From NCBI GenBank assembly GCA_049972045.1, contig JBMFKS010000005.1:4202-59511 (forward strand): a stretch of DNA of 55,310 nt, read 5' to 3'. Origin of the DNA: Anaerolineae bacterium (GTDB lineage: Bacteria; Chloroflexota; Anaerolineae; B4-G1; DUEL01). The notes under the pieces were generated by a model that searched no databases, was not told where the DNA came from, and saw only the letters and a list, made by a program, of their open reading frames with translations. The position numbers and the translations under genes were made by a program. Positions 13,285 to 50,244 of this stretch are shown here, one piece after another; position 1 is the stretch's first letter, and each line of letters begins with the position of its first letter.

Positions 13285-13716
13285 GTGGGGAGCGGAGGAG
13301 CGGAGGAGCAGGGGAGCGGAGGGGTAAGGATAATTCAGGGGCATCGGGAATTGGAAGTGTATCGGCTGGCGTTTGATGCCGCGATGCGAATTTTCGCCGT
13401 CCCAAAGGTTTTTCCGCGGGAGGAGACCTACTCTCTGGTGGATCAGATTCGTCGGTCGTCCCGGTCCGTCTGTGCGAATATCGCGGAGGCATGGCGGAAG
13501 CGCCGGTACCAGGCGGCCTTCATCAGTAAGCTGAGCGATGCGGAAGCGGAGGCGGCCGAAACACAGGTTGGGCTCCCGTTCTTCGTGGAATGTGGCTATC
13601 TGGCGCAGGAGGTCGGCCAGGAGTTGCATCGGGTCTACGACGATGTTATCGGCAAACTGGTCAATATGATCGCCCATCCCGCCCCGTGGCTGCTGTTCAG
13701 GAGGAGCACCCGATGA
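13285..13716 (+). CDS. Four-helix-bundle protein (23S rRNA IVP / TIGR02436-like); start uncertain
   Basis: HRELEVYRLAF...FPREETYSLVDQIRRSSRSVCANIAEAW...FISKL...EAAETQV. Confidence 0.9.
   Translation: MGSGGAEEQGSGGVRIIQGHRELEVYRLAFDAAMRIFAVPKVFPREETYSLVDQIRRSSRSVCANIAEAWRKRRYQAAFISKLSDAEAEAAETQVGLPFFVECGYLAQEVGQELHRVYDDVIGKLVNMIAHPAPWLLFRRSTR
13287..13325. repeat. 8-mer array (GGAGCRGR), left flank of the four-helix-bundle gene
   Basis: GGGAGCGGAGGAGCGGAGGAGCAGGGGAGCGGAGGGG; roughly complementary to 13721-13760. Confidence 0.7.
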
Positions 13717-18534: not shown

Positions 18535-18602
18535 ACGTGATTTGTGATTAGAGCGGCGCGGGGGAGCGGGCCGGATGGACTACTGAGGAATGGGAGGCCC
18601 AG

Positions 18603-19026
18603 GTGCCGGAGGAAATTCGCCGGGATCCCCTCTGGCAGATGGAGGCGTATCGGCTGGCCCTGTATTTCTATGACCTAGTGGTTAGTCAACTTATGGGTCC
18701 GAATTGCCGACGCGGCCAGAGGCCCATGCAGGCCCCAAGTAGGGCAACTGCGAGCAGTTGCCCTACGGGGTTGGGCGATTGCCGAGCAGTTGATCCGCAG
18801 CGCGGGTTCTATCGCGGCGAACATTAAAGAGGGCTACGGTCGGGGTCTGGGCCGACAGTTTGCTCAATTCCTGGGCTATTCCCTCGGTTCCACCCGGGAG
18901 AGCCGTGGCTGGTATGATCGGGGTCGCAGACTTCTGGACCTGGAGACCATCCGTCACCGCTATCGCATCCTGACCCAGATCATCCGCCTCCTGACGGTCG
19001 CCGTTCGCCAGCAGCGCAATCCCTAA
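18603..19026 (+). pseudogene. Four-helix-bundle gene disrupted by a MITE fragment
   Basis: N-part DPLWQMEAYRLALYFYDL and C-part RGWAIAEQLIRSAGSIAANIKEGYGR..SLGSTRES lie in different frames, separated by 18675-18766. Confidence 0.85.
18675..18766 (+). mobile_element. Partial MITE copy
   Basis: CTAG|TGGTTAGTCAA...GGCCCATGCAGGCC...GTAGGGCAACTGCGAGCAGTTGCCCTAC. Confidence 0.85.
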
Positions 19027-24207: not shown

Positions 24208-25896
24208 ATGAGCCGCGTCGGTGTCTTTATCTGTCACTGCGGGATCAACATCGCCGGGACGGTGGACGTGGAGCGGGTCGCGGAGGAGGCGGGCCGGATG
24301 CCCGGCGTCGCCTTCGCCACCCACTACAAGTACATGTGCTCCGACCCGGGCCAGCAACTTATCCAGCGCGCCATTGCAGAGCACAACCTGGACGGCGTCA
24401 TCGTCGCGGCTTGTTCGCCCGCGATGCACGAGCGGACCTTCCGCCAGGCCGTCGCCGCGGCCGGGCTGAACCGGTACCGCTGCGAGATCGCCAACATCCG
24501 GGAGCAGTGCTCCTGGGTCCACCAGCACGAACGGGAGGAGGCCACGGCCAAGGCGGTGGAGATTGTCCGGGCGATGGTGGAGAAGGTGAAGCGGGACGAG
24601 GCGCTGGTCCCCCTGCGGCTTCCCATCGTCCGGCGGGCGCTGGTGATTGGCGGCGGCGTTGCCGGGCTGGAGGCCGCGCTGGACATTGCCAATGCAGGCT
24701 ATCCGATCGTGCTGGTGGAGCGGGAGGACCGGCTGGGCGGCAAGATGGCCCGTCTCTCCGGCACGTACCTGAATTTTGAGGCCGCGCCGGGGATGCTGGA
24801 GAGACGAATCCGGCAGGTCCTGGAACATCCCCACATTGACGTCGTCCTCAACGCGCGAGTCGCCAAACTGGAAGGCTACGTGGGCAACTTCGCCGTGACG
24901 GTGGAGACGCCCGGGGGAAGCCGGACGGAGGAGGTGGGGGCCGTTGTCGTCGCCACCGGCTGGGACCCGTACCCGCTGGAGCGGCTGCCGGAGTACGGCG
25001 GGGGTCAGGTCCCCGACGTGGTGGACGGCCTGACCTTTGAGGAGATGCTGCGGACGGGTCTCCGTCGGCCTTCGGACGGGCGGGTGCCCCGGGAGGTGGT
25101 CTTCGTCCAGTGCGCGGGCTCCCGGGACCCGGAGCACGGCGTCTCCTACTGCTCCAAGGTCTGCTGCATGTACGTCGCCAAGCAGGCGATGATGTTCAGG
25201 GAGCGGGTTCCGGACGGACAGGCCTACGTCTTCTACATTGACATCCGCTCCGGCGGGAAGGGGTACGACGAGTTCGTCCAGCGGGCGATGGAGGAGTACG
25301 ACGTCCTCTACCTGCGGGGCAAGGTGAGCAAGATTTTCCGCCGGGGCGACAAAGTGGTGGTCTGGGGCTCCGACACGCTGGTGGGCCGGCCGGTGGAGGT
25401 GGAGGCGGACCTGGTGGTGCTGGCGACGGCGATGTTGCCCTCGCGGGAGGCGCTCGCCCTGGCCCAGACGCTCCACATTCAGGCCGACCGGTACGGGTTC
25501 TACAGCGAGGCGCATCCCAAGTTGCGCCCGGTGGAGAGCCTGACGGCGGGGGTCTTCCTGGCCGGGGCCGGACAGGGGCCCAAAGACATCCCGGAGACGG
25601 TGGCCCAGGCGGCGGCCGCGGCGGCCAAAGTAGTCCAACTCTTTGCCCAGGAGGCGATGGTCCAGGAGCCGACCGTCGCCTATGTGATTGAGGAACTCTG
25701 TTCCGCCTGCGGCGCGTGTGTGGCCGTCTGCCCGTACGGCGCGCGGGAGATCCACCCGGTCCGTCAGGTGGCGACGGTGAACCCCGCGCTCTGCCAGACC
25801 TGCGGGGCGTGCGTGGTGGCCTGTCCCAACAAGGCCAGCCGCATCCACAACTGGGAGCCGGTCCAGGTGCTGGCGATGGCGGACGTGGTGATTTGA
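24208..25896 (+). CDS. hdrA: HdrA-family flavoprotein, single module with C-terminal ferredoxin (562 aa)
   Basis: GVFICHCG, AACSP, NIREQCSWVH, GGGVAG, QCAGSRD..YCSKVCC, two CxxCxxCxxxCP. Confidence 0.95.
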   Translation: MSRVGVFICHCGINIAGTVDVERVAEEAGRMPGVAFATHYKYMCSDPGQQLIQRAIAEHNLDGVIVAACSPAMHERTFRQAVAAAGLNRYRCEIANIREQCSWVHQHEREEATAKAVEIVRAMVEKVKRDEALVPLRLPIVRRALVIGGGVAGLEAALDIANAGYPIVLVEREDRLGGKMARLSGTYLNFEAAPGMLERRIRQVLEHPHIDVVLNARVAKLEGYVGNFAVTVETPGGSRTEEVGAVVVATGWDPYPLERLPEYGGGQVPDVVDGLTFEEMLRTGLRRPSDGRVPREVVFVQCAGSRDPEHGVSYCSKVCCMYVAKQAMMFRERVPDGQAYVFYIDIRSGGKGYDEFVQRAMEEYDVLYLRGKVSKIFRRGDKVVVWGSDTLVGRPVEVEADLVVLATAMLPSREALALAQTLHIQADRYGFYSEAHPKLRPVESLTAGVFLAGAGQGPKDIPETVAQAAAAAAKVVQLFAQEAMVQEPTVAYVIEELCSACGACVAVCPYGAREIHPVRQVATVNPALCQTCGACVVACPNKASRIHNWEPVQVLAMADVVI

Positions 25897-26047
25897 ACCA
25901 CGAAGACACCAAGAGACGAAGAAATTAAAAATTAACAATTAAAAATGAAACTTCGTGCCTTCGTGTCTTGGTGGTTTTCTTTACCACGAAGACACAAAGA
26001 CACGAAGTTTTGTCAGTTTTTCTTTGTGCCTTCGTGTCTTGGTGGTT
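25896..26047. repeat. Two inverted 9-mer arrays (hairpins); the first loop holds an AT-rich 7-mer array
   Basis: ACCACGAAGACACCAAGAGACGAAG...CTTCGTGCCTTCGTGTCTTGGTGGT, then a second near-identical hairpin; first loop AAATTAAAAATTAACAATTAAAAATGAAA. Confidence 0.9.
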
Positions 26048-29053: not shown

Positions 29054-29132
29054 CTTCGTGCCCTTTGTGTCCTTCGTGGTAGGGTCGTTACAACTCTTCA
29101 CGCAGCACGCAGTACGCAATCCGTAACACGTA
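29054..29132. repeat. Orphan 9-mer arm followed by a 7-mer array
   Basis: CTTCGTGCCCTTTGTGTCCTTCGTGGT, then CACGCAG CACGCAG TACGCAA TCCGTAA CACGTA. Confidence 0.75.
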
Positions 29133-32399: not shown

Positions 32400-33338
32400 A
32401 TGGAGATGACCCGGGGACCTGCCGCATCGGTCATCAGCACCGGGATCGCCGGGACTCAGGCCGAGCAACTCCCGCGCATCCAGGAACGGCTTCTGCAGGC
32501 CTGTCCGGCCATCCTGGGCATCGTCCTCTTTGGCTCCGCGGCCCGGGGGGAACCGCACCAGGATGTGGACCTGCTGGTTGTAGTGCGCGGTGCGATGGGG
32601 GACCGCGAACGGACGGAGGTGCTGAAGGTCCTGCGGAGGGCCCTGGGGCCGGAAGGGGCCTGGGTGGACCTGGTGGTGGTGACCGAGCAGGGGCTCCGGT
32701 GGGGGCTGGAGGCGCATTATCCGTTTTACCTGGACATTGCCTTTGATGGGATCGTGCTCTACGACGCCGATGGGGTGACGGCCCTGCTGGAACGGGCCCG
32801 GGAAGAGGTGACCGCGCAGGGCATTCGGCGAACGGAGACCGGGGGATGGCAGTTCCCGGTGCCCTATCGCCAGCGGGTGCCGCTTTCGCCATTTGATAAC
32901 GTGACGTGGGCCCGCCGATGGCTGGAAGACGGCGAGCGGGACCTGCAGGCGGCGGACGCGCTCTTCCGTATGGGGCTGTACGAACGAAGTGTGACCCACA
33001 GCCAGCAGGCGGTGGAGAAGAGCGCCAAGGCCGTGCTGGCCTGTATGGGGCGGATGGAGCGGACCCACTACCTCTCGGCTCGCCTGAGAGCCCTGCTGGA
33101 GACGATCCCGGACCCGCAGTGGCGGGAACAGTTGAAGACGCTGGCCCGGGCGGCGGCGGATCTGGAGCCGGCCGCCGTGGCCAGCCGGTATCCGGTGGAG
33201 GTGGACGAAGAGGTGGTCTGGCCTGCCGACCGCTATGGGCAGGCCGAGGCCGAATGGGCGCTGGAACTGGCCCGGGAAAGTCAGGAGATCGGGCGGGCGT
33301 TTATCCGCTGGTGGACGGAGGAGGAACCGTCGGTATGA
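32400..33338 (+). CDS. MNT-HEPN fusion protein
   Basis: LFGSAARGEPHQDVDLLVV plus WLEDGERDL..HSQQAVEKSAKAVL..RMERTH..SRYP. Confidence 0.85.
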   Translation: MEMTRGPAASVISTGIAGTQAEQLPRIQERLLQACPAILGIVLFGSAARGEPHQDVDLLVVVRGAMGDRERTEVLKVLRRALGPEGAWVDLVVVTEQGLRWGLEAHYPFYLDIAFDGIVLYDADGVTALLERAREEVTAQGIRRTETGGWQFPVPYRQRVPLSPFDNVTWARRWLEDGERDLQAADALFRMGLYERSVTHSQQAVEKSAKAVLACMGRMERTHYLSARLRALLETIPDPQWREQLKTLARAAADLEPAAVASRYPVEVDEEVVWPADRYGQAEAEWALELARESQEIGRAFIRWWTEEEPSV

Positions 33339-34705
33339 CCCAAAAACCCGCAGCACTGGTCATTGGCGCCGGGATCGCCGGCATTCAGGCCGCGCTGGAT
33401 ATCGCGGACGCCGGCTTTCCGGTCTATCTGGTGGAACGGGAGCCCAGCGTGGGGGGCCGGATGGCCCAACTGGATAAGACCTTCCCGACGCTGGACTGTT
33501 CGTCCTGCATTCTCACGCCCAAAATGGTGAGTGTGGGCCAGCACCCGAACATTGAGTTGCTGACCTACTCCGAAGTGGTGGCAGTGGAGGGGGAGGCCGG
33601 AGCCTTCCACGTCACCATTAAGAAAAAGCCGCGCTATGTGGACGAGGACCTCTGCCGGGGGTGCGGGCTCTGCGCGCAAGAATGCCGGATGCACGGGCGG
33701 GTGGTGGATACCTTCAACCAGGGTCTGGGGAAGCGGGCGGCCGTTTATGTCCCCTTCCCGCAGGCGGTGCCGCTGGTCTACACCATAGACCCGACGGCCT
33801 GCCTCTACCTGACCCGGGGCGTCTGCGGCAAGACCTTCAAATGCAAGGACGCCTGTCCCACCGGAGCGATCAATTTTGAACAGAAGGAACAGTTCGTGGA
33901 GGTGGACGTAGCGGCGATCATCGTCGCCACCGGCTTTGACCTGATGGACCCGCGCACCAAGCCGGAGTTCGGCTATGGGGCCTACCCGAACGTCATCACC
34001 GGGCTGGAGTTTGAGCGGCTCTCCTCGGCATCCGGCCCGACGGGTGGGAAGATCGTCCTCAACGGGAAGGAGCCGCAGGACGTGGTCTTCATCCACTGCG
34101 TCGGCTCCCGGGACCCGCACACCGGGGTCCCGTACTGTTCCCGGATCTGCTGTATGTACACGGCCAAGCACGCGCATCTGGTGCGGGACAAACTCCCGAA
34201 CGCCCGGATCACCGTTTTCTATATTGATATGCGGGCCTTTGGCAAGGGGTACGAGGAGTTCTACGACCGGGTGAAGGAGGAGCGGGTGATCTACCGGCGC
34301 GGGGAGCCCTCGGAGGTGTACCGGCGGGGGGACCGGCTGGTGGTGCGGGCGGAAGACTCGCTGCTGGGTCGGACGGTGGAGGTGGAGGCCGACCTGGTGG
34401 TACTGGCGACGGCGGTGGTCCCCAGGGCCGATACATCCGCCGTGGCCGAACTCCTGGGGCTTTCCCTCTCGCCCGACGGTTTCTTCCAGGAGGCCCATCC
34501 CAAGTATCGGCCGGTGGAGACGGCCCGACCGGGGGTCTTCCTGGCGGGCTGCTGTCAGGGGCCAAAGGACATCCCGGATACCGTGGCCCAGGCAAAGGCC
34601 GCGGCCGCTTCGGCGCTGGTGGTGCTGAGTGGTTCACCACAAAGACGCGAAGACACAAAGTATAGAGAGATGGTTTTGCCGGAGCGGGTGGGGGAGCAGC
34701 GATGA
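33335..34705 (+). CDS. hdrA: HdrA-family protein, single FAD module with inserted ferredoxin and no C-terminal ferredoxin
   Basis: Start reassigned to ATG 33335; GAGIAG, DKTFPTLDCSSC, CRGCGLC, HCVGSRD..YCSRICC. Confidence 0.92.
   Translation: MTQKPAALVIGAGIAGIQAALDIADAGFPVYLVEREPSVGGRMAQLDKTFPTLDCSSCILTPKMVSVGQHPNIELLTYSEVVAVEGEAGAFHVTIKKKPRYVDEDLCRGCGLCAQECRMHGRVVDTFNQGLGKRAAVYVPFPQAVPLVYTIDPTACLYLTRGVCGKTFKCKDACPTGAINFEQKEQFVEVDVAAIIVATGFDLMDPRTKPEFGYGAYPNVITGLEFERLSSASGPTGGKIVLNGKEPQDVVFIHCVGSRDPHTGVPYCSRICCMYTAKHAHLVRDKLPNARITVFYIDMRAFGKGYEEFYDRVKEERVIYRRGEPSEVYRRGDRLVVRAEDSLLGRTVEVEADLVVLATAVVPRADTSAVAELLGLSLSPDGFFQEAHPKYRPVETARPGVFLAGCCQGPKDIPDTVAQAKAAAASALVVLSGSPQRREDTKYREMVLPERVGEQR
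34636..34660. repeat. 9-mer arm, left flank of the GxxExxY gene, inside the hdrA 3' end
   Basis: ACCACAAAGACGCGAAGACACAAAG. Confidence 0.85.
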
Positions 34706-35094
34706 GAGAGACTGCGCTTTCGGAGAGGGAGGAGCAGATCGCCCGGGCGATCGTGGATGCGGCGTATGCGGTGCACAGCGCCCTGGGGCCGGGTCTGCTG
34801 GAGAGTATCTACGAGGTCTGCTTCTGCCACGAACTGGGAAAAAGGGGGCTCTCTTATCGCCGACAGGTAGTGGTGCCGATCACGTATGATGGGTTGGTTT
34901 TTGAGGAGGGGTTGCGGCTGGATGTGCTGGTGGAAGAGGCGGTCGTCTGCGAGATTAAGGCTGTAGAGGTGATGCATCCGGTGTTTATGGCCCAACTGCT
35001 GACCTATCTGAAACTGACAGGTAAACGTCTGGGGTTCCTGATCAATTTCAACGTGCCGATCATCAAGCAAGGTATCAAACGGGTAGTTTTGTGA
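34702..35094 (+). CDS. GxxExxY protein (PD-(D/E)XK-like)
   Basis: VHSALGPGLLESIYE, RLDVLVE..VVCEIKAV, AQLLTYLK, GFLINFN. Confidence 0.93.
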   Translation: MRETALSEREEQIARAIVDAAYAVHSALGPGLLESIYEVCFCHELGKRGLSYRRQVVVPITYDGLVFEEGLRLDVLVEEAVVCEIKAVEVMHPVFMAQLLTYLKLTGKRLGFLINFNVPIIKQGIKRVVL

Positions 35095-35111
35095 TAACCA
35101 CGTGTGATCAA

Positions 35112-35246
35112 ACCACAAAGGCACGAAGACACAAAGAAAAATTTATAAAACTTCGTGTCTTTGTGTCTTCGTGGTGAATTAGATAACCACAAAGACACGA
35201 AGGCACAAAGAAAAAAATTTACTTTGTGTCTTGGTGTCTTCGTGGT
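35112..35246. repeat. Two inverted 9-mer arrays (hairpins), right flank of the GxxExxY gene
   Basis: ACCACAAAGGCACGAAGACACAAAG-(A/T loop)-CTTCGTGTCTTTGTGTCTTCGTGGT, followed by a second near-identical hairpin. Confidence 0.92.
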
Positions 35247-35272: not shown

Positions 35273-36397
35273 ATGGACATCCAACAGCACGCACGGGAAC
35301 TGGGACTTGGCCTGGACCTCTTCAGTTGCATCCAGTGCGGCAAGTGCACCGGTGGGTGTCCCGTTTCTATCACGACCGCGCTGAACGTCCGCTCCCTGAT
35401 CTACGGCGCGCTCATCGGTGACATCGCGGGGCCGGTCCACCGGGAGGAACTTTGGGACTGTACCTGCTGCTTTACCTGTGTGGAGCGCTGTCCCAAGGAT
35501 GTCCGCCCGGCGGAGGTCATCATCGCCCTGCGGAGCCTGCTGGTGGAGGAGGGGAAGGTCCCCGGCACCATCGGCAACGCGCTGATGGGCATCTTCCGCC
35601 AGGGCAACCCGCTGGGCTACGCGCGGGAGGACCGGACCGCCTGGATGGACGGGCTGAACGTCAAGCCGGCCCAGGAGGGGTGCGAGACTCTCCTCTTCAC
35701 CTGCTGCAGTTCCGCCTACGACGTCCGCGCCCAGGCGGCGACAAAGGCGCTGGTCCGGGTGCTCCAGGCCGCCGGGGTGGACTTCGGACATCTGGGCACG
35801 GAGGAGACCTGCTGCGGCAACGAGGTGCGCCGGGTAGGGGAGATGGGCCTCTTTGAGATGCTGGTGGAGGAAGGAAAACCTCTGCTGGAGGGGAGCGGCG
35901 CGGCGCGGATGGTGACCACGTCGCCGCATTGTATGAACACCTTCCGCCACGAGTACAAACTGGGGATGGACGTGCTCCACTACACCCAGGCGCTGGCCCG
36001 CCTGCTGGACGAGGGGCGGCTGAACCTGACCGGTCGGGTGGAGAAAGTGGTCACCTACCACGACCCGTGCTTCCTGGGAAAACAGAACGGGATTTTTGAC
36101 GAGCCGCGGGAGGTCCTGAAGGCCATTCCGGGCGTGAAGTTCGTGGAGATGGACCGCATCCGGGAGCGGAGCCTCTGCTGCGAGGGCGGCGGCGGGCGGA
36201 TGTGGTTTGAGGGCACCAACACCGAGGGTCGTCTGGCTTTCCAGCGGGTTCAGGAGGCCGCCGACACCGGCGCCGAGATTCTGGCTGTGGCCTGTCCCTT
36301 CTGCATGGCGATGCTGGACGACGCGGTGAAGGTGAAGGGACTCTCCGAGCGGCTGAAGGTGATGGACATCGCCGAACTGGTGGCGATGGCGCTATGA
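35273..36397 (+). CDS. HdrD-like Fe-S oxidoreductase (two 4Fe-4S motifs plus two CCG-type domains)
   Basis: CIQCGKCTGGCP, CTCCFTCVERCP, CCGN..TSPHC, YHDPC..CCEGGG..CPFC. Confidence 0.88.
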   Translation: MDIQQHARELGLGLDLFSCIQCGKCTGGCPVSITTALNVRSLIYGALIGDIAGPVHREELWDCTCCFTCVERCPKDVRPAEVIIALRSLLVEEGKVPGTIGNALMGIFRQGNPLGYAREDRTAWMDGLNVKPAQEGCETLLFTCCSSAYDVRAQAATKALVRVLQAAGVDFGHLGTEETCCGNEVRRVGEMGLFEMLVEEGKPLLEGSGAARMVTTSPHCMNTFRHEYKLGMDVLHYTQALARLLDEGRLNLTGRVEKVVTYHDPCFLGKQNGIFDEPREVLKAIPGVKFVEMDRIRERSLCCEGGGGRMWFEGTNTEGRLAFQRVQEAADTGAEILAVACPFCMAMLDDAVKVKGLSERLKVMDIAELVAMAL

Positions 36398-36548
36398 GAT
36401 GGCCGCAGAATAAAAAGACGGGCTCACCCTGGGGGCCGATTCTCACCGCTCAGAGGCGGAGTAGCACGTACTGACGTACGAACAGCCGACCCAGGACTTA
36501 CGAGTCCAGTCTGGTTAGAGTACCCATTCTCTGTCAAGTGAGCCGGCT

Positions 36549-48980: not shown

Positions 48981-49225
48981 GGATTTATTACGATGCAGAG
49001 GTGGATGCGTTGTATGTGCAGTTTCGCTCTTTGGAGCCGGGTATGGCGCAGGCGCGGCCGTTGAGCGACCAGATTATCGCGGACTATGACCCTGAGGGGC
49101 GGCTCGTCGGGCTGGAGATTCTGGATGTCAGCGAGTTGCTGGGAGAGGAGCGAGGCCGGCTGATGCTGGAGATCGCGCCGGCTCTGGTGTCCCGCGTGCC
49201 GGAAAGCGCGGGGTTCAAACTCTGA
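48977..49225 (+). CDS. DUF2283-family protein
   Basis: MRIYYDAEVDALYVQF...IADYDPEGRLVGLEILDVS. Confidence 0.88.
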   Translation: MRIYYDAEVDALYVQFRSLEPGMAQARPLSDQIIADYDPEGRLVGLEILDVSELLGEERGRLMLEIAPALVSRVPESAGFKL

Positions 49226-49284
49226 CCCCAGGGGGCGCAAAGAGACACGCGAAAAACTTTGTGTCCTTCGTGTCCTTTGTGGTT
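49225..49284. repeat. Degenerate inverted 9-mer array
   Basis: Right arm CTTTGTGTCCTTCGTGTCCTTTGTGGTT; left arm decayed. Confidence 0.7.
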
Positions 49285-49767: not shown

Positions 49768-50244
49768 ATGACGCGCGGGGAGGTCCCGGCGGGGAAGAGG
49801 GAGACCCGGGACACAGTCCGGGCGGCTCCGGTTACCCGACCAGCGGAGCGGAGGCGCGACTGGCGGCTGGAGGGGAATCAGGGGCTGGATATTCAAGAGC
49901 GAGCGTTTCAATTCGCGGTGCGGGTAGTGAAACTGGTCAATCGGTTGCCCCGGACGATTGCCGGGATAGAAGTAGGCCGACAGTTGGTCCGCTCGGCGAC
50001 GTCGGTGGGGGCAAACTTGGAGGAGGCCGACGCGGCGGAGTCCAAAGCCGATTTTATTCACCAGGTGGGGATCGCCCACAAAGAGGCCCGGGAGGCTCGC
50101 TATTGGCTCCGCATCGTCCGCGCATCGCTGCTGGATGACGGGGAGGTCGTCTGGCTGCTTCGGGAAAGCGATGAGTTAGTTCGCATTCTCAACTCCATCA
50201 TCTCCAACGCCCGCAGGAGCCCGCGCAGCAAGGTCGGCCGCTAA
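49768..50244 (+). CDS. Four-helix-bundle protein (start uncertain)
   Basis: DIQERAFQFAVRVV...QLVRSATSVGANLEEA..AESKADFIH...KEAREARYWL. Confidence 0.92.
   Translation: MTRGEVPAGKRETRDTVRAAPVTRPAERRRDWRLEGNQGLDIQERAFQFAVRVVKLVNRLPRTIAGIEVGRQLVRSATSVGANLEEADAAESKADFIHQVGIAHKEAREARYWLRIVRASLLDDGEVVWLLRESDELVRILNSIISNARRSPRSKVGR

Follow-up and report, generated by a model that had tools for sequence, protein, structure and literature searches.

Why should a small nuclease-like gene stand between inverted arrays of a short repeat, at the exact junction of two co-directional hdr genes, and why should the same repeat recur elsewhere in the genome without that gene? The question is raised by a stretch of 55,310 nt from an Anaerolineae bacterium, hereafter the window (contig C5, positions 4202-59511, of genome G000, which comprises 3.34 Mb in 300 contigs at 65% GC). 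The gene encodes a GxxExxY protein, and the gene with its repeat arms, here called the cassette, looks like an undescribed selfish DNA element that is spread over many microbial phyla. The gene-plus-arms unit is exchanged between phyla and keeps an arm word peculiar to its protein clade. At operon junctions it comes and goes, decaying there to truncated genes, hairpins and solitary arms, and gene-less members of its arm family occur in large excess. With modest confidence, we favor the hypothesis that the locus in the window is one copy of a small selfish cassette, consisting of a clade-1 GxxExxY gene and inverted arms, whose nuclease reads its own arms.

The hdrA-like junction and its nuclease gene

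The stretch is present in public hot-spring metagenomes, and among the matches listed the closest named relatives of its genes are Anaerolineae metagenome-assembled genomes (MAGs). The junction is built as follows (window coordinates; no strand is assigned to hairpins).

33341-34705, plus strand: HdrA-like flavoprotein gene; its open reading frame (ORF) is open from 32906, with the start likely near 33341
34636-34661, plus strand: left arm, ACCAC and then three 8-nt units of the CACNAAGR type, 86-90% complementary to the right arms (inverted pairs I3 and I4)
34702-35094, plus strand: GxxExxY gene, 130 aa, PD-(D/E)XK, clade 1, matched by PF13366 and TIGR04256
35112-35175: complete hairpin 1 with an AT-rich loop, arms 35112-35136 and 35151-35175 (pair I5)
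35186-35246: complete hairpin 2, arms 35186-35210 and 35222-35246 (pair I2)
35273-36397, plus strand: HdrB/C-like gene with a 4Fe-4S and two CCG domains (ORF and Pfam)

An earlier, sequence-only reading of the window had described a GxxExxY gene framed by inverted arrays, with a left arm inside the 3' end of hdrA that gives the protein the tail PQRREDTK. Both descriptions hold: an intact GxxExxY gene lies between the left arm and two complete hairpins, and the left arm is located within the 3' end of the HdrA-like ORF, which reads through it as ...SPQRREDTK.... The repeat unit had been taken for a 9-mer; at the cassette, and likewise at 25897-26046, it is in fact 8 nt long (CACNAAGR). The HdrA-like ORF, in which Pfam matches to Pyr_redox_2, FAD and Fer4 begin at residue 151 (numbering of the 32906 ORF), has the C-terminus ...SGSPQRREDTKYREMVLPERVGEQR*, and its TGA overlaps the ATG of the GxxExxY gene. 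The position of the cassette is exact, from the stop region of the hdrA-like gene to the ribosome-binding site of the HdrB/C-like gene directly 3' of hairpin 2, and the last codons of hdrA are rewritten: the final 23 codons come from the cassette, and in insert-free congeners the HdrA-like protein stops about 5-8 codons past ...ALVVL. The cassette and the hdr genes are read in the same direction.

The pattern ACCACRAAGRCACRAAGRCAC, with up to three mismatches, has nine matches in the window against 0.00 expected from 100 shuffles. Folded as single-stranded DNA and compared with shuffles, hairpins 1 and 2 give z = -5.2 and z = -7.8, respectively. Between 34400 and 35500 a promoter scan found no promoter-like site, and a terminator scan found one terminator-like site, which lies outside the hairpins and equals the result for shuffles; Rfam at its gathering thresholds gave no match at the arms or hairpins.

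Assignment of the GxxExxY protein to a PD-(D/E)XK family, also made in the sequence-only reading, is borne out by matches far above cut-off to TIGR04256 (GxxExxY protein; 137.8 bits against 35, E = 1.9e-40) and to PF13366 (PDDEXK_3; 134.3 bits against 22, E = 3.3e-39, profile positions 2-117 of 117). The GxxExxY signature (G31, E34 and Y37), the family residues H25 and G29, and the PD-(D/E)XK catalytic residues (D74, E84-x-K86 and Q98) are all present, and among 65 sequences they are invariant or at least 90% conserved. An AlphaFold2 (AF2) model with a pLDDT of 96.6, together with its structural matches, shows the alpha-beta-beta-beta-alpha-beta core of PD-(D/E)XK enzymes. The top fold matches are all PD-(D/E)XK nucleases (BpuSI, Cas4 SSO0001, BglII and Hjc), with Z scores of 6.7-7.7, a range that alone is not decisive. 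A sequence search of solved structures returned nothing at E <= 1, Foldseek returned no match to the model at E <= 0.001, and a dimer prediction scored 0.00, which has no bearing either way. Given the intact catalytic set and the confident PD-(D/E)XK model, the enzyme looks active. The part of the PD-(D/E)XK survey available to us (PMC3424549) gives the function of the PF13366 family as unknown, and its supplements might hold more on PF13366; our literature searches with GxxExxY, PDDEXK_3, PF13366 and TIGR04256 found no link to repeat arms.

Arm words and protein clades across phyla

Two protein clades of GxxExxY were scanned against a collection of species-representative genomes. Each scan returned at least 600 loci, which illustrates how widespread TIGR04256/PF13366 is, and the best 80 loci of each were kept. 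These come from Chloroflexota, Planctomycetota, Acidobacteriota, Bacteroidota, Verrucomicrobiota, Cyanobacteriota, Nitrospirota, Pseudomonadota, Bacillota, Desulfobacterota-type lineages and archaeal MAGs. Flanks were usable at 78 clade-1 loci (protein identity 50-77%) and 79 clade-2 loci.

A pair of CRCnRAGn 8-mer words is found on any flank at 71 of the 78 clade-1 loci and inverted on both flanks at 52, and the clade-2 word is found at none of the 78. At clade-2 loci a CRCnnATT 9-mer occurs on any side in 62/79 cases and on both sides in 35, a 10-mer occurs on both sides in 18/79, and the 8-mer is found in 0/79. As controls, shuffled flanks and the flanks of 28 four-helix-bundle genes each gave 0-1. 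When the two flanks of a locus are compared, the top inverted match is almost always the word of the window in clade 1 and a C-R-C-n-n-A-T-T word in clade 2. The clade split has 100/100 support in the protein tree, on which class A arms accompany 31 of the 32 clade-1 rows and class B arms 23 of the 33 clade-2 rows, with other words in 8 more, and the arm labels cluster on this tree better than in all 500 shuffles.

Neighbors on the protein tree belong to different phyla, and the unit has therefore been exchanged horizontally between phyla with its clade-specific arm word. Agreement between arms at positions 1, 3, 5, 6 and 7 of the unit is 99-100%, as compared with 91% at position 2, 75% at position 4 and 64% at position 8. 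Because neutral flanks would be randomized at 50% protein identity, the arm word is under selection. Arm word and protein clade thus go together, and so do the gene and the hairpins.

We also considered the possibility that the arm period is fixed by the gene family everywhere. This is true of relatives: at 30 of their GxxExxY loci the best flank array has a period of 9 in 16, 8 in five, 10 in three and 7 or 13 in two, with no array at four, and at 30 of their four-helix loci the period is 7 in 20 and 8 in eight, with none or another in two. As a general rule it was rejected. Clade 1 uses period 8, and thus the period tracks the protein clade and not the family.

Gene-less arms and the states of two junctions

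Copies of the repeat without the gene had been reported in the sequence-only reading at 25896-26047, 29054-29080 and 49225-49284, and all three are real.

25897-26046: two gene-less 8-mer hairpins that fill a gene junction, recognized by the arm pattern (fold z = -5.1 and -4.0)
29054-29080, minus strand: solitary reverse arm of a 9-nt variant (C5:33253-33279)
49225-49284: right arm of the 9-nt variant, opposite a degenerate left arm (C5:53462-53482; fold z only -0.6)

Thus the 9-nt unit of that reading (here CACNAAGRN) stands at the second and third of these places and falls at the first, as it does at the cassette.

Throughout the genome there are 222 arms at 138 sites with at least two CACNAAGR(N) units, and only 3 of these sites adjoin a GxxExxY gene. 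By class, the arm sites number 82 for A8 (8-mer), 63 for A9 (9-mer), 63 for Ag (GAG variant), 29 for Ac (CGC variant), 23 for B1 (ACARGATT), 14 for B2 (CACGAATT) and 21 for B3 (CACRGATT), a total of about 295 as against 5 full GxxExxY genes. The gene inventory further includes one C-terminal piece at a contig end and one weak fragment. Each full gene has its own arm class, and each such class also occurs without a gene. The five genes share 30-52% identity among themselves and are therefore not recent duplicates. Since a contig end is no more than 150 nt away from 13 of the 82 8-mer sites, the site counts are lower bounds. An unbiased survey with TRF and inverted matching yielded 95 pairs of inverted arrays, most of them hairpins whose loops are shorter than 60 nt.

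The 25 complete 8-mer hairpins have AT-rich loops of 8-38 nt, carry no coding remnant and share one mismatch pattern. Their free positions are Watson-Crick paired in 51 of 125 cases, as compared with 71.5 +/- 5 in shuffles, because arms of two fixed types are always combined. The shared mismatch pattern suggests that hairpins are copied as units, and from their sequences whole 8-mer hairpins would appear to be copies of one another.

A search for filled and empty alleles, which the sequence-only reading had called for, recovers full, decayed, hairpin-only and empty states at two junctions of the window. The orthologous hdrA junction was recovered on a single contig in 10 congeners. It holds the full cassette in G000; the left arm, a 40-codon piece of the gene (identical to the G000 GxxExxY protein at 31 of 36 aligned amino acids), the right arm and a hairpin in G010; one hairpin, with hdrA ending inside an arm, in G004 and G012; a clean spacer of about 45 nt in G008 and G007; two-gene inserts that by eye resemble toxin-antitoxin pairs in G009, G001 and G006; and short remnants in G003 and G002. 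The clean state is probably ancestral, as G008 and G007 share the N-terminus of the downstream gene with outgroup genera. At the junction corresponding to 25897-26046, the clade-1 cassette is complete and has 9-mer arms in G001, G004 and G009; G010 holds a pseudogene, G005 only a hairpin and G011 a solitary right arm; G002 is empty, with 20 nt, and in other congeners the inserts are unrelated, among them a gene of about 290 aa between 7-mer arms. The only supported pair in the within-genus junction tree, G001 and G004, differs in junction state, and turnover is therefore fast.

Three of these alleles at the 25897-26046 junction deserve separate description. In G001 (L249) the left arm module of the cassette stands in three tandem copies of about 57 nt each, and arms therefore amplify as blocks. 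The empty allele of G002 (L244) has TAACCAC, the outer arm end, directly after the stop codon, either as a footprint of loss or as a preferred target. In G008 (L251) and G012 (L253) the gene of about 290 aa, of unknown family, lies within inverted 7-mer arms of the CTGCGAC type, which are otherwise seen around four-helix genes; thus, other cargo genes share the design.

Gene and arms are also associated at the level of genomes. For 251 genomes of the phylum, matches to a three-unit arm pattern were counted minus a reversed control, and the gene was scored as a clade-1 profile match at E <= 1e-10. At least 9 net arm matches are found in 15 of the 251 genomes; the 50 genomes with a GxxExxY match contribute 13 of these and the 201 that lack one contribute 2 (Fisher p = 1.5e-8, with kin not independent). 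With G000 left out, 12 of 49 gene-bearing genomes reach this number. The tallies include G078, G213 and G267, which are flagged as unpublished and are not among the 15; without them the fractions are 13/49 and 2/199. Genome-wide co-occurrence, proposed in the sequence-only reading as a check, is thus observed, and arms are rare rather than equally common where GxxExxY is missing, G258 and G089 being the exceptions. A clade-1-like gene (at least 125 bits) is found in 24 genomes, including G000, and 8 of these reach at least 9 net matches; expansions are therefore sporadic. In 41 relatives arm matches range from 0 to 604, and all 7 relatives without a GxxExxY match have at most 4; gene-bearing relatives with 0 matches presumably use other words. 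One genome, G051, has 468 arm matches and 2 GxxExxY genes. Among distant carriers, a genome titled Flavobacterium laiguense LB2P30 (L103) has 47 arm matches against 0 in the control, and a Pyrinomonadaceae MAG has 100 against 12.

Could every gene-less hairpin be the remnant of a full cassette that once stood in the same place, with nothing mobilized in trans? The truncated gene of G010 at the hdrA junction argues for this, as do the pseudogene of G010, the hairpin of G005 and the solitary arm of G011 at the second junction, and fragments of GxxExxY genes are found in several relatives. Nevertheless, G000 has only 2 gene fragments to set against its arm sites, the numbers in G051 are similarly disproportionate, and the complete 8-mer hairpins have short loops free of coding remnants and a single mismatch pattern. 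Decay as the sole source of gene-less hairpins seems to us rather unlikely.

The genome also contains 8 four-helix-bundle (TIGR02436) genes, and these show a design matching that of the cassette, with 7/8-nt units, as the sequence-only reading had remarked in drawing a parallel between the two. Inspection by eye of the flanks of 15 GxxExxY and four-helix loci found inverted short tandem arrays on both sides in 12, weak arrays in 2 and a flank cut by a contig end in 1; the unit varies from gene to gene. Three four-helix genes lie in the window (13357-13674, 18772-19011 and 49891-50208 (+)), each with its own inverted short-repeat arms. The AACAATTA-type arm word of the last is also seen inside 8-mer hairpin loops, for example at 25920-25945. 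A dispersed element with a perfect GC-rich hairpin core lies at about 18600-18770, with further copies in G000 at C32:20600-20760, C38:25780-25960 and C14:20290-20400; the copy in the window appears to break into the 5' portion of the four-helix gene at 18772-19011, whose profile match begins only at position 25.

Elsewhere in G000, gene pairs at C105:4601-5286 and C105:7419-8234, which by eye resemble HicA/HicB and HEPN/nucleotidyltransferase, are each bracketed by hairpins of the CACRGATT class, which in this genome is without a GxxExxY gene. Hairpin loops of about 200-320 nt at C11:42004-42361 and C21:15425-15665 hold no convincing ORF and have in common a conserved non-coding segment of about 40 nt (ACGGAGTGCCG...AATCTCCCGAC), possibly a small RNA cargo. 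Within the hdr cluster itself, a nucleotidyltransferase-HEPN fusion gene (32400-33338, plus strand; Pfam NTP_transf_2 and HEPN) lies immediately upstream of the HdrA-like gene and is another small gene of the insert type. A DUF3800-III RNA (Rfam; 36416-36512, minus strand; 71.8 bits against a gathering score of 43.8) is placed in the spacer from the HdrB/C-like gene to the next HdrA-like gene, on the opposite strand.

Proposed mechanism, alternative explanations and known systems

An arm consists of an ACCAC start and about three phased 8-nt words, C-R-C-n-R-A-G-n, and we propose that the nuclease recognizes these words in the arms that flank it, with DNA as the most likely substrate. Such recognition may drive copying or retention of the cassette in a homing-like manner, in which a cut is repaired with a filled copy as template, or alternatively by excision and insertion. 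Gene-less hairpins would then be non-autonomous derivatives, some of them decay products, the bulk having probably spread as hairpins with the nuclease supplied in trans. A wider hypothesis, which we advance tentatively, is that GxxExxY proteins are a very large family of miniature sequence-reading nucleases, each clade with its own 7-nt word in phased inverted arms (CRCnRAG in clade 1, CRCnnAT in clade 2 and an ACAGGAT-like word in a subclade), and that with these arms they make up a class of selfish elements found throughout the bacteria and also in archaea. If this were true, the class would seed genomes with hundreds of hairpins, rewrite gene ends and turn operon junctions into insertion hot spots, and its protein-word pairs would amount to a natural, evolvable DNA-recognition code.

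Several observations weigh against a cassette that is driven by its own nuclease. Nuclease activity and mobility are inferred, and no binding, cleavage or transposition was observed. In 47 cassettes there is no target-site duplication, the counts of direct repeats of k = 3-6 at the ends (15, 4, 1 and 1) being equal to the shuffled expectation, and we know of no strand-transfer chemistry for a lone PD-(D/E)XK nuclease of 130 aa. In two hot-spring metagenomes from different studies the depth of the cassette is like that of its flanks (34.6 vs 28.1 and 26.8 vs 29.8), and among the contigs of 4 DNA runs none joins across the GxxExxY gene; there is therefore no sign of ongoing excision. Skipping joints in the metagenome contigs do occur, and these fall within the hairpin region and stem from many other copies. 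Arms are found where the gene is not: G258, which is 97% complete, has 33 net arm matches and G089 has 9, neither with a GxxExxY match at the threshold used. Conversely, 16 of the 24 genomes with a clade-1-like gene have few gene-less arrays. The same arm design surrounds four-helix-bundle genes, which are not nucleases, and by eye also toxin-antitoxin-like pairs and the gene of about 290 aa, so that repeat arms alone do not require a nuclease. Several gene-less copies at both junctions are clear products of the decay of full cassettes in place, and, as the within-genus junction tree is star-like, the order of events is not established.

The unit could instead act at the level of RNA, as an element of the intervening sequence (IVS) type whose arms pair in the operon transcript, whose stem is cut by RNase III and in which the nuclease is mere cargo. 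The architecture is that of the Coxiella IVS, for which the part of PMC4990558 available to us describes an ORF set in a terminal stem of 28 bp, heptamers in tandem beside that ORF, and removal by RNase III. Four-helix-bundle genes of the S23p type, in this genome and in relatives, share the design, and the cassette reads in the same direction as the hdr genes, with its start overlapping the hdrA stop. A stem alone, however, requires neither an arm word that is conserved as sequence nor one that is clade-specific. Unit positions 4 and 8 are poorly complementary and are systematically mismatched in the G000 hairpins, and Rfam is without a match at the arm sites. Furthermore, mismatches of the G·U type are not commoner than those of the A·C type on the sense strand: among cassettes with an arm score of at least 12, we count 36 vs 45 in 62/80 of clade 1 and 22 vs 32 in 66/80 of clade 2. 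This lack of a G·U excess in the sequences gives no support for selection on a stem in the sense transcript, though an RNA stem would still be compatible with it. A literature search that paired the intervening sequence protein with inverted repeats found nothing relevant. Taken together, we regard an RNA-level element with passive cargo as improbable.

Even less probable, in our judgment, is that gene and hairpins have no functional link, the hairpins being host or independent REP-like (repetitive extragenic palindromic) repeats at permissive or recombinogenic junctions where GxxExxY genes merely accumulate. Both junctions are indeed hot spots with unrelated inserts (toxin-antitoxin-like pairs, by eye, the gene of about 290 aa and a GC-rich insert of 335 nt). 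In addition, the CACRGATT class (21 sites) flanks the two toxin-antitoxin-like pairs on C105 and lacks a GxxExxY gene, and the 8-mer hairpins of G000 at 25897-26046 occupy a junction that in congeners holds a cassette with 9-mer arms. Without a link, however, three findings are left unexplained, namely, the retention of one arm word next to proteins that are about 50% identical across phyla, the change of word with protein clade and the co-occurrence at the level of genomes. Judged by the layout of the arms, an integron-type gene cassette with the hairpins as attC sites, suggested by small promoter-less genes separated by imperfect hairpins, is most improbable, since attC sites would not be expected to show phased tandem words in the arms, inverted arms on both sides of a gene, or an arm word that follows the clade of the protein inside.

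We return to the selfish cassette with a nuclease that would read its own arms. No description of an element made of GxxExxY and arms was found in the literature searched. The tie between a protein clade and a specific DNA word offers the first testable substrate for the TIGR04256/PF13366 family. The cassette would also account for much of the intergenic hairpin repeat content of G000 and other genomes, breaks in assemblies (as at the 8-mer sites close to contig ends) and altered C-termini of host genes, such as that of hdrA.

Among known systems, insertion sequences (IS) and their miniature inverted-repeat (MITE) derivatives have terminal inverted repeats, an autonomous copy with many short gene-less copies, and burst-like abundance. 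The cassette likewise has terminal inverted repeats and many gene-less copies and is abundant in a burst-like manner in some genomes; it differs in lacking a target-site duplication and a DDE or other known transposase and in measuring only about 0.6 kb. Free-standing homing endonuclease genes, including those of the PD-(D/E)XK type, are small selfish nuclease genes that occupy precise sites and pass through cycles of gain, loss and decay. In the cassette, by contrast, the presumed recognition sequence lies on both sides of the gene as phased repeats and also exists in hundreds of gene-less copies, and homing is here only a proposal. The short tandemly repeated repetitive (STRR) sequences of cyanobacteria are intergenic tandem repeats of 7-9 nt that vary between strains, whereas the arrays of the cassette form inverted pairs tied to a specific gene family.

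With the 23S rRNA IVS of Coxiella burnetii and its S23p ORF, as far as the available part of PMC4990558 describes them, the cassette shares a small ORF within terminal inverted repeats of about 25-28 bp, short tandem repeats beside the ORF, an ORF that decays as the stem persists, and a suggested origin as a mobile element. It differs in lying between protein-coding genes instead of in a 23S rRNA helix, in encoding a nuclease instead of a four-helix-bundle protein, and in having a clade-specific arm word and no G·U strand bias.

The closest comparison is with REP/REPIN repeats and REP-associated tyrosine transposase (RAYT) genes, for which we draw on the available parts of PMC3116915 and PMC3337134. 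In both systems a single small nuclease-type gene lies between inverted copies of a short repeat, the repeat is in large gene-less excess, repeat family and gene co-occur across genomes (13/50 vs 2/201 here), and several gene/repeat pairs can coexist in one genome. The sequence-only reading had posited such an autonomous/non-autonomous pair. That interpretation is partly supported: the covariation of word and clade, the alleles and the co-occurrence agree with it, but some gene-less copies demonstrably arose by decay in place, and G258 has arms and no detectable gene. The differences are considerable as well: the enzyme is PD-(D/E)XK and not HUH/Y1 (IS200/IS605-like), Pfam and NCBIfam giving only PDDEXK_3 and GxxExxY; the arms are arrays of phased 8-10-nt words where a REP is a single palindrome; the outer end is ACCAC where the REP tag is GTAG or CGTC; and the cassette is exchanged between phyla, whereas RAYT/REP are vertically inherited. 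Because the enzyme is unrelated to RAYT, the likeness is one of analogy and not of membership, and as an analogy it is the best available working model. If the nuclease does mobilize the arms, the GxxExxY cassette would represent a second, enzymatically unrelated solution to the REP/RAYT lifestyle.

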